NCBI RefSeq assembly: GCF_988243305.1
Contig: NZ_OZ547136.1
Reading direction: 5' to 3' (one strand)
DNA: 64,000 nucleotides
Below, piece by piece: positions 8,656 through 39,603 of the stretch. Numbering within the stretch: position 1 is the first letter of the stretch; each line of letters starts with the position of its first letter. The translations under genes and the position numbers were made by a program. The notes under the pieces were generated by a model. That model saw nothing but the letters and a program-made list of their open reading frames with translations. It was not told the origin of the DNA and searched no databases.

Positions 8656-8755
8656 CTGCCTGATGCGCTACGCTTATCAGGCCTACGTGGTCCTGCAATA
8701 TATTGAATTGGCAAGATTTTTGTAGGCCGGATAAGGCGTTCACGCCGCATCCGGC
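8656..8755. repeat. REP/BIME element (two REP-type palindromic units) between entD and fepA
   Basis: gcctgatgcgctacgcttatcaggcctac and tgtaggccggataaggcgttcacgccgcatccggca match the enterobacterial REP consensus family. Confidence 0.75.
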
Positions 8756-36858: not shown

Positions 36859-37139
36859 TAATTTGTCCTTTTCAGTCAGTGCAAAAGTCGGGTAAAAGGC
36901 ATAACCTATCACTGTCATAGGTAAGAGCTTAGATCAGGTGATTGCCCTTTGTTTATGAGGGTGTTGTAATCCATGTCGTTGTTGCATTTGTAAGGGCAAC
37001 ACCTCAGCCTGCAGGCAGGCGCTGAAGATACCAAAGGGTAGTTCAGATTACACGGTCACCTGGAAAGGGGGCCATTTTACTTTTTATCGCCGCTGGCGGT
37101 GCAAAGTTCACAAAGTTGTCTTACGAAGGTTGTAAGGTA

Positions 37140-37229: not shown

Positions 37230-37793
37230 ATGTCCTTGATTAACACCAAAATTAAACCTTTTAAAAACCAGGCATTCAAAAACGGCGAATTCATCGAAAT
37301 CACCGAAAAAGATACCGAAGGCCGCTGGAGCGTCTTCTTCTTCTACCCGGCTGACTTTACTTTCGTATGCCCGACCGAACTGGGTGACGTTGCTGACCAC
37401 TACGAAGAACTGCAGAAACTGGGCGTAGACGTATACGCAGTATCTACCGATACTCACTTCACCCACAAAGCATGGCACAGCAGCTCTGAAACCATCGCTA
37501 AAATCAAATATGCGATGATCGGCGACCCGACTGGCGCCCTGACCCGTAACTTCGACAACATGCGTGAAGATGAAGGTCTGGCTGACCGTGCGACCTTCGT
37601 TGTTGACCCGCAGGGTATCATCCAGGCAATCGAAGTTACCGCTGAAGGCATTGGCCGTGACGCGTCTGACCTGCTGCGTAAAATCAAAGCAGCACAGTAC
37701 GTAGCTTCTCACCCAGGTGAAGTTTGCCCGGCTAAATGGAAAGAAGGTGAAGCAACTCTGGCTCCGTCTCTGGACCTGGTTGGTAAAATCTAA
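37230..37793 (+). CDS. ahpC: Alkyl hydroperoxide reductase peroxiredoxin subunit C
   Basis: 187 aa; peroxidatic Cys in FTFVCPTE, resolving Cys in EVCPAKW. Confidence 0.95.
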
Positions 37794-37814
37794 ATTTCCT
37801 TCGTCTTTCACGCC

Positions 37815-37910
37815 ATAGCGGCGTTGGCGTCGCCCGCTCACCCCGGTCACTTACTTGTGTAAGCTCCCGGGGATTCACAGGCTAGCCGCCTTGCTCTGGC
37901 GTGAAATACT
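37815..37910. repeat. ERIC/IRU-like repetitive palindromic element in the ahpC-ahpF spacer
   Basis: cgctcaccccggtcacttacttgtgtaagctcccggggattcac resembles the ERIC core as I recall it (AAGTAAGTGACTGGGGTGAGCG ... GTAAGCTCCTGGGGATTCAC). Confidence 0.55.
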
Positions 37911-38037
37911 TCGGAAATTCACCTAATTCTTCGGGTGCTGCGGCACCCGATTTTCTTCCCCGCACCATGATGCAAGCTGCATCCAGGTAGCCGCAGAGGC
38001 CGCTTGCATGATGATGTTTAAAGCCCAGGAGATAAAC

Positions 38038-39603
38038 ATGCTCGACACAAATATGAAAACTCAACTCAAGGCTTACCTTGAGAAATTGACCAAGCCTGTT
38101 GAGTTAATTGCCACGCTGGATGACAGCGCTAAATCGGCAGAAATCAAGGAACTGTTGGCTGAAATCGCAGAACTGTCAGACAAAGTCACCTTTAAAGAAG
38201 ATAACAGCTTGCCGGTGCGTAAGCCGTCTTTCCTGATCACTAACCCAGGTTCTAACCAGGGGCCACGTTTTGCAGGTTCCCCGCTGGGCCACGAGTTTAC
38301 CTCGCTGGTACTGGCGTTGTTGTGGACCGGTGGTCATCCGTCGAAAGAAGCGCAGTCTCTGCTGGAGCAGATTCGCCATATTGACGGTGATTTTGAATTC
38401 GAAACCTATTACTCGCTCTCTTGCCACAACTGCCCGGACGTGGTGCAGGCGCTGAACCTGATGAGCGTACTGAACCCGCGCATCAAGCACACTGCAATTG
38501 ACGGCGGCACCTTCCAGAACGAAATCACCGATCGCAACGTGATGGGTGTTCCGGCAGTGTTCGTAAACGGGAAAGAGTTTGGTCAGGGTCGCATGACGTT
38601 GACTGAAATCGTCGCCAAAATTGATACTGGCGCGGAAAAACGTGCGGCAGAAGAGCTGAACAAGCGTGATGCTTATGACGTATTAATCGTCGGTTCCGGC
38701 CCGGCGGGTGCAGCGGCAGCAATTTACTCCGCACGTAAAGGCATCCGTACCGGTCTGATGGGCGAACGTTTTGGTGGTCAGATCCTCGATACCGTTGATA
38801 TCGAAAACTACATTTCTGTACCGAAGACCGAAGGCCAGAAACTGGCAGGTGCGCTGAAAGTTCACGTTGATGAATACGACGTTGATGTGATCGACAGCCA
38901 GAGCGCCAGCAAACTGATCCCGGCAGCGGTTGAAGGTGGCCTGCATCAGATTGAAACAGCTTCTGGCGCGGTACTGAAAGCACGCAGCATTATCGTGGCG
39001 ACCGGTGCAAAATGGCGCAACATGAACGTTCCGGGCGAAGATCAGTATCGCACCAAAGGCGTGACCTACTGCCCGCACTGCGACGGCCCGCTGTTTAAAG
39101 GTAAACGCGTAGCGGTTATCGGCGGCGGTAACTCCGGCGTGGAAGCGGCAATTGACCTGGCGGGTATCGTTGAGCACGTAACGCTGCTGGAATTTGCGCC
39201 AGAAATGAAAGCCGACCAGGTTCTGCAGGACAAACTGCGCAGCCTGAAAAACGTCGACATTATTCTGAATGCGCAAACCACGGAAGTGAAAGGCGACGGC
39301 AGCAAAGTCGTTGGTCTGGAATATCGCGATCGTGTCAGCGGCGATATTCACAACATCGAACTGGCCGGTATTTTCGTGCAGATTGGTCTGCTGCCGAACA
39401 CCAACTGGCTGGAAGGCGCAGTCGAACGTAACCGCATGGGTGAGATTATCATTGATGCGAAATGCGAAACCAACGTGAAAGGCGTGTTCGCAGCGGGTGA
39501 CTGTACAACGGTTCCGTACAAGCAGATCATCATCGCCACTGGCGAAGGTGCCAAAGCCTCTCTGAGTGCTTTTGACTACCTGATTCGCACCAAAACAGCA
39601 TAA
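38038..39603 (+). CDS. ahpF: Alkyl hydroperoxide reductase flavoprotein subunit F
   Basis: ORF 38008..39603; start [13 protein letters not shown] (521 aa); redox CxxC pairs CHNCPD and CPHCDGP; FAD motif GSGPAG. Confidence 0.95.

Follow-up and report, generated by a model that had tools for sequence, protein, structure and literature searches.

By what means can two genes of a single operon be expressed to unequal extents? The ahpC-ahpF locus of Escherichia coli raises this question, and the spacer between the two genes is the place where an answer may be sought. We analyzed this locus in a 64,000-nt stretch of E. coli DNA (hereafter the window, to which all unlabeled coordinates refer), which is colinear with the MG1655 genome (NC_000913.3), an MG1655 coordinate being the window position plus 601715 (3 mismatches in 1201 nt). 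With ahpC ending at 37793 and the ahpF ATG starting at 38038, the spacer is 244 bp long, which is the length given in the first-pass annotation of this DNA. Folded as RNA, it is predicted to form three separate hairpin modules (total -98.7 kcal/mol, z = -4.7), which are listed in Table 1 together with the flanking gene signals; the Shine-Dalgarno sequence and the ATG of ahpF sit 11-25 nt 3' of the 3' arm of the last, long hairpin. The reading that we favor, with a probability of about 0.8, is that this three-module 3' UTR/intercistronic spacer uncouples the output of ahpC from that of ahpF within the single operon. The ERIC, the leaky terminator and the RNase III site found between ahpC and ahpF have each been described previously, and the arrangement is thus real but ordinary.

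Table 1. Elements of the ahpC-ahpF intercistronic region in window coordinates
Feature	Position	Strand	Basis
ahpC coding sequence (187 aa)	37230..37793	+	ORF list; RefSeq annotation of the colinear MG1655 region
Full-length 127-bp ERIC (IRU/RU-1), in the orientation of the printed consensus	37793..37919	+	consensus alignment, primer sites, fold
Intrinsic-terminator-type hairpin (37931-37950) and interrupted U-tract UUUUCUUCC	37931..37959	+	pattern scan, fold, Term-seq 3' ends
Long imperfect hairpin, RNase III processing site; core arms 37966-37977 and 38002-38013	37963..38016	+	fold; coordinate of Gordon et al. 2017
ahpF Shine-Dalgarno AGGAG (38027-38031) and ATG (38038-38040)	38027..38040	+	sequence; RefSeq ahpF start 639753 = window 38038

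The module closest to ahpC, in which the first-pass annotation had recognized a segment matching the ERIC/IRU core at about 37815..37910, proved to be a full-length ERIC. Its alignment with the 127-nt E. coli consensus of Wilson and Sharp, as printed in Delihas 2007 (PMC2759123), is gapless from end to end with 93 of 127 positions identical (73%), and the alignment score of 59 is far above the scores of 500 shuffled sequences (4.1 +/- 2.2, maximum 17). When the window was searched with the primers ERIC1R and ERIC2, each had a single match in the entire 64-kb window, on the minus strand, at 37857-37878 (ERIC1R, 2 mismatches) and 37835-37856 (ERIC2, 1 mismatch), and none of 100 shuffles gave a match to ERIC1R or ERIC2. 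The element consists of 27-nt terminal inverted arms (37793-37819 and 37893-37919, 81% complementary) and an apical hairpin (37841-37872), and its RNA is predicted to fold into the longest duplex of the spacer (-56.5 kcal/mol, z = -6.2). The first base of the ERIC is the final A of the TAA stop codon of ahpC; the dinucleotide TA precedes the element (within the stop codon) and CA follows it (37920-37921), and the copy ends in AATT versus TATA in the consensus. Being located between the ahpC stop codon and the published same-strand RNA 3' ends at 37953/37955, the ERIC is intergenic and co-transcribed with ahpC, whose 3' UTR begins with it. It belongs to a dispersed repeat, which occupies a median of 8 places per genome (range 1-15; blastn, E <= 1e-3, 5,425 E. 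coli genomes). For Salmonella, Hulton et al. reportedly listed an ahpC-ahpF ERIC in 1991.

The ERIC of the window differs from that of MG1655 at two positions, with G for A at 37899 and T for C at 37902. The partners of these bases are 37813 and 37810, respectively, and the substitutions turn the stem mismatches C.A and A.C into Watson-Crick pairs, raising the predicted stability of the element from -45.4 to -56.5 kcal/mol. The exact 127-mer of the window was found in none of 5,426 complete E. coli genomes, where the best match was 99.2% identical.

A search of the region with Rfam models returned no family at the gathering threshold inside the spacer. Two matches below the threshold overlap the ERIC on the minus strand, V_AS5 with 23.6 bits (threshold 96) and CssrA with 19.4 bits (threshold 93), and these are probably due to ERIC-like sequence within the models themselves; for the ERIC as such there is no Rfam family. 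In the same neighborhood, between dsbG and ahpC, the enterobacterial sRNA STnc70 (RF02069) is matched in full at 36992-37085 on the plus strand (44.1 bits, gathering score 40), and the Term-seq data of Adams et al. 2021 (PMC7815308) contain a 3' end at 638796, i.e., window position 37081, at the terminator-like end of STnc70.

The presence of the ERIC was expected to vary among strains, and it does: three spacer alleles were found among 5,426 complete E. coli genomes. The 244-bp allele with the full ERIC is carried by 1762 genomes (~32%); the 170-bp allele, which retains a short ERIC of ~53 bp composed of the outer arms only, is carried by at least 1943 genomes according to a junction search and by ~2540 (~47%) when counted by difference; and the 128-bp allele, with no recognizable ERIC, is carried by ~1112 genomes (~21%). 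Some 68% of the E. coli genomes thus lack the full ERIC. Between the terminator and the ahpF ATG, aligned representatives of the three alleles do not differ except for one substitution in LF82, and both the terminator and the RNase III hairpin are unchanged across representatives of all three. In the stem that the short allele retains, it differs from the full one by compensated changes (UUUCACGCC/GGCGUGAAA versus UUUCGCGCU/GGCGCGAAA). The 128-bp allele resembles the ERIC ends over only ~5 nt per side, which is a very short match for telling an empty site from a deletion footprint.

The slot that follows the ahpC stop codon is also occupied in relatives of E. coli. In a set of metagenome sequences, an ERIC was present in every one of the 30 distinct spacers that measure 239 bp or more, with the same orientation throughout and a start no more than 24 nt from the ahpC stop codon, and 5 of these 30 spacers contain two copies. 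Two tandem ERICs follow the ahpC stop codon in L113 and L186, and one full copy is accompanied by a second, partial one in L180 and L182; in the metagenome contig L175, a second ERIC in the opposite orientation lies at spacer positions 195-317, inside the loop of a divergent form of the RNase III hairpin. About 30 other metagenome spacers have REP-type palindromes at the site that the ERIC occupies in E. coli. REP/BIME-type palindromes (GCCGG...CCGGCCTAC, GTAGGCCGGGTAA...CACCCGGC) were seen between the ahpC stop codon and the terminator in other Enterobacteriaceae (L086, L114, L100, L011, L014 and L009), and in L100 an ERIC and a REP pair are found together. Elsewhere in the window, at 8674-8734, there is a BIME-like inverted pair of the REP-type motifs TTATCAGGCCTAC and TTATCCGGCCTAC.

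The ERIC copies residing between ahpC and ahpF share the termini AAATT...AATTT versus TATA...TATA in the consensus, and these common non-consensus termini suggest that all of them may derive from a single old insertion. The E. coli copy is identical to that of Superficieibacter electus (L017:3065-3190) at 119 of 127 positions (94%) and forms a sharp island of 93-97% identity between flanks of 47-90%; identity at third codon positions of the same two genomes is 0.67 in ahpC and 0.59 in ahpF, and only 47% of the 40 nt after the ERIC are identical. Selection acting on the ERIC RNA, conversion of the gene region and horizontal exchange between lineages are possible causes of the high identity between genera.

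The second module is a short hairpin, TCGGGTGC-TGCG-GCACCCGA, which was found exactly where the first-pass annotation had placed it, with all 8 pairs complementary. The 8-bp stem contains 6 GC pairs and is closed by a 4-nt UGCG loop (-16.6 kcal/mol, z = -6.0), and the hairpin together with the tail TTTTCTTCCC satisfies a generic terminator pattern. The brevity and the interruption of the U-tract are in keeping with a weak, leaky terminator. Partial termination had been suggested for the spacer without the short hairpin being called a terminator, and it is at this hairpin that strong published RNA 3' ends fall: the supplement of Adams et al. 2021 (PMC7815308) lists plus-strand Term-seq ends at 639668 in two data sets and at 639670 in a third. 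In the window, these are position 37953, the third U past the stem, and position 37955, the first C.

In 87 of the 90 distinct spacers that contain the long hairpin, a GC-rich stem-loop of 6 bp or more, trailed by a T-rich stretch, is present upstream of it. The distance between the two is 9-21 nt in 86 of these spacers and 33 nt in one more (L175). The stem varies among the 90 spacers in a compensated manner (GGGTGC/GCACCC, GGGCGC/GCGCCC, AGGCGC/GCGCCT, GGCTGC/GCAGCC), and the U-tract is short and interrupted throughout the spacers compared. In Pantoea, Providencia, Brenneria and Arsenophonus, all of which are without the long hairpin, a CGGGTGC-loop-GCACCCG structure with a T-run is likewise found between ahpC and ahpF; the spacers of these bacteria are 69-79 bp long and their T-run is usually longer (6-8 T). 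Judged from these comparisons, the putative terminator hairpin is ancestral and is conserved, with covariation, across Enterobacterales.

The third module contains the imperfect 12-bp inverted repeat of the first-pass annotation, catgatgcaagc and gcttgcatgatg, the arms of which pair at 11 of 12 positions, the single unpaired position being a G.G mismatch; the distance from its end to the ahpF ATG, given there as about 25 nt, is 24 nt. The repeat is the core of longer, 21-nt arms (37963-37983 and 37996-38016, 81% complementary). The predicted fold (-23.0 kcal/mol) is less exceptional than those of the other two modules in having a z of only -2.5, with 5 of 200 shuffles folding as well. The minimum free energy structure spans 37962 to 38017 with internal mismatches and offers the approximately two helical turns of mostly double-stranded RNA that RNase III needs.

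It was reported by Gordon, Cameron and Pfleger 2017 (PMC5371410) that "639695, intergenic (ahpC-ahpF)" is the second-ranked new RNase III site, with 4 reads in the wild type versus 3,598 in the rnc mutant (a ratio of ~900). Since their reads were mapped to NC_000913.3, the site corresponds to window position 37980, in the upper 5' arm of the long hairpin. According to the same article, the half-life of ahpC mRNA is ~14 min in the wild type and ~6 min in the rnc mutant, the stability of ahpF is unaltered, and purified RNase III cleaves a 760-nt in vitro transcript that covers 37720-38479. The role in mRNA processing and stability that had been proposed for this spacer is supported by these published results, the rnc-dependent depletion peak being inside the very hairpin with the 12-bp stem. 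The methods of Gordon et al. place the site ~150 nt from the 5' end of the template, which would be ~37870, at the apex of the ERIC, and position 37980 is 261 nt into the template. The template holds all three hairpins, so the cleavage result alone does not tell which of them is cut.

The long hairpin was compared in 13 Enterobacteriaceae genomes, where its arms are almost invariant: there are no compensatory changes, 7 cells of the alignment are broken and single substitutions are uncompensated. After this alignment, a larger covariation set was assembled by a metagenome scan anchored on the ahpF start, i.e., outside the hairpin, which yielded 88 distinct spacers; the two arms were taken as gapless blocks, giving 30 distinct arm pairs, and the same blocks with the partner slid by 1-3 columns served as controls. 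Paired cells make up 84.4% of the 30 arm pairs versus 22-49% in the slid controls, changes on both sides were seen at 5 pairs versus 0-2, and the covariation score is 0.148 versus 0.019-0.068. Three of the five pairs with changes on both sides trace to a single divergent clade with the arms CTCATTTAAGC / GCTTAAATGAG, in which the G.G mismatch is also repaired, and the support from covariation, being real, thus rests on few events. The predicted long hairpin extends to most Enterobacteriaceae; it was absent from Pantoea, Erwinia, Providencia, Brenneria, Arsenophonus and Mangrovibacter.

In E. coli, the 3' arm of the RNase III hairpin includes three back-to-back ATGs (ATGATGATG, 38008-38016) that are in frame with ahpF, and a mechanically delimited ORF beginning there is 10 codons longer than the annotated ahpF. 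An N-terminal extension of AhpF or a uORF was considered and rejected, as the frame is closed by a stop codon in other genera and the RefSeq start is 38038; in particular, the stop codon that closes the frame in 'Enterobacter' sp. Bisph1 (L006) makes it unlikely that the upstream ATGs are coding. An internal ahpF promoter was likewise rejected, a pattern scan of the spacer having returned no sigma-70-like site.

According to the reading that we favor, the three modules would act one after another. Transcripts initiated at the ahpC promoters would traverse the ERIC, which would fold as a long hairpin right after the stop codon, and many of them would end at the leaky intrinsic terminator made by the short hairpin and its interrupted U-tract, giving rise to monocistronic ahpC mRNA with a 3' end guarded by the terminator hairpin and, where it is present, by the ERIC hairpin as well. 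Transcripts that read through would be cut by RNase III within 37963-38016, and ahpC would thereby be severed from ahpF. The upstream cleavage product would presumably be trimmed back to the terminator hairpin and be long-lived, and the downstream product would be an ahpF mRNA whose 5' end lies a few tens of nucleotides ahead of the Shine-Dalgarno sequence. The net outcome would be an ahpC message far in excess of that of ahpF, in line with AhpC being a decamer and AhpF a dimer, as noted by Gordon et al. (PMC5371410). The 3' ends at 37953/37955 probably result mainly from termination, and the ERIC is likely an optional accessory, either an exonuclease barrier or a neutral passenger, and not a required part. 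Processing, stability and partial termination, which the first-pass annotation had put forward as ways of setting the ahpC:ahpF ratio, all match the published Term-seq and RNase III data.

There are other ways in which the same observations could be accounted for. It could be that the ends at 37953/37955 arise purely by processing, with transcripts reading through, RNase III cutting downstream and 3' exonucleases halting at the GC hairpin, so that the short hairpin would be a stabilizer. The short and interrupted U-tract would agree with this, as would the plentiful read-through RNA at 37980 in the rnc mutant and the exonuclease-blocking hairpins that Gordon et al. propose 3' of ahpC (PMC5371410), but the hairpin does fit the generic terminator pattern and is kept with its T-run, there of 6-8 T, in Enterobacterales that lack the RNase III hairpin. 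Termination and trimming, moreover, would produce an identical end and could operate together, and a purely processing-based origin seems unlikely to us. Somewhat less likely still is that the main ribonuclease target is not 37963-38016 but the ERIC hairpin, which would then set the stability of ahpC mRNA, being cut either by RNase III as a long double-stranded RNA, as in the case of the Neisseria Correia elements, or by RNase E after terminating ribosomes have opened its base, a course of events put forward for the ERICs of Yersinia. The ERIC begins within the stop codon, so its left arm must be covered, and its AU-rich right arm released, by a ribosome that terminates there; the ERIC is also the longest duplex of the spacer, the design of the in vitro template points to the ERIC apex, and Yersinia ERICs, according to reviews, destabilize the upstream mRNA via RNase E in an orientation-dependent manner. 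Against this, the rnc-dependent depletion reported for living cells by Gordon et al. is maximal 61 nt past the ERIC, the ahpC mRNA is long-lived in the wild type and is stabilized by RNase III, and the two other hairpins remain unchanged in those ~68% of E. coli genomes that have no full ERIC.

The inverted repeat at 37963-38016 could also act at the level of DNA, serving a transcription factor as its operator or belonging to an internal ahpF promoter. In 13 genera, the sequence of both arms hardly varies and shows no compensatory change, which is a stronger conservation than a generic stem needs, but the lack of a sigma-70-like promoter in the spacer, the 12-26 variable nucleotides between the arms, unlike in a dimeric operator, the alteration of three stem positions on both sides together with the repair of the G.G mismatch in the divergent clade, and the location of the RNase III-dependent depletion within this very repeat make such a role highly improbable. 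Another possibility concerns the ERIC, which may be a selected RNA module that blocks 3' exonucleases or switches in response to ribosomes at the stop codon, with the three alleles constituting an expression polymorphism that tunes the AhpC level or the AhpC:AhpF ratio. The grounds for this are the island of 93-97% identity with Superficieibacter, the compensated stem changes that distinguish the full and short alleles, the fact that the two substitutions of the window copy relative to K-12 both repair mismatches, and the filling of the slot by REP pairs or tandem ERICs in other genera. We consider this reading of the ERIC speculative and rather improbable.

The modules of this spacer can be compared with several known systems. 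As a member of the ERIC/IRU/RU-1 family (Sharples & Lloyd 1990; Hulton et al. 1991; Wilson & Sharp 2006), the ahpC-ahpF copy is typical in its 127-bp length, its imperfect palindrome with terminal inverted repeats, its near-perfect ERIC1R/ERIC2 core sites, its transcribed intergenic location directly after a stop codon, and in being one of many copies that are present or absent, or exist as internally deleted short forms, in different strains. It departs from the family in its termini, AATTTCC...GGAAATT versus TATACCC...GGGTATA in the consensus, in having the TA dinucleotide at the left flank only, and in being far better conserved between genera than neighboring synonymous sites (94% versus 59-67% in Superficieibacter). 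With the Yersinia ERICs that are reported to modulate flanking mRNA via RNase E (De Gregorio et al. 2005), the ahpC-ahpF copy has in common that it is co-transcribed, abuts the upstream stop codon and has a fixed orientation, which is the same in 30 of the 30 ERIC-bearing relatives studied here. Unlike with those elements, no destabilization of ahpC is evident at ahpC-ahpF; as the ahpC mRNA is long-lived, nothing indicates an effect of the Yersinia type.

The overall layout is reminiscent of operons in which a leaky terminator is combined with RNase III cleavage, such as rplKAJL-rpoBC, sdhCDAB-sucABCD and the early mRNAs of phage T7. In these, too, a hairpin with a weak U-tract follows an abundant gene and precedes a scarcer one, and RNase III cleavage leaves a 3' hairpin that shields the upstream message. 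The ahpC-ahpF spacer differs from them in having an optional mobile palindrome, ERIC or, in other genera, REP, between the stop codon and the terminator. As for the RNase III site of Gordon et al. 2017, the locus is the same, the published coordinate is inside 37963-38016 and the effect, stabilization of ahpC, is also the same, and there is no difference in kind from what that article describes; the present comparison adds how far the hairpin extends among taxa and its covariation in a divergent clade. As each of the three elements has already appeared in publications or public data sets, no novelty is claimed for them.

In this contribution, we defined the exact limits of the three modules of the ahpC-ahpF spacer, of which two are fixed and one, the ERIC, is optional. 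These are modest additions. Palindromic repeats have come to occupy the position behind the ahpC stop codon more than once in enteric bacteria. The spacer illustrates how the partners encoded by one operon may be supplied unequally, by a leaky terminator and then by RNase III cleavage, which releases the upstream message as a stable RNA, a mechanism that has been published.
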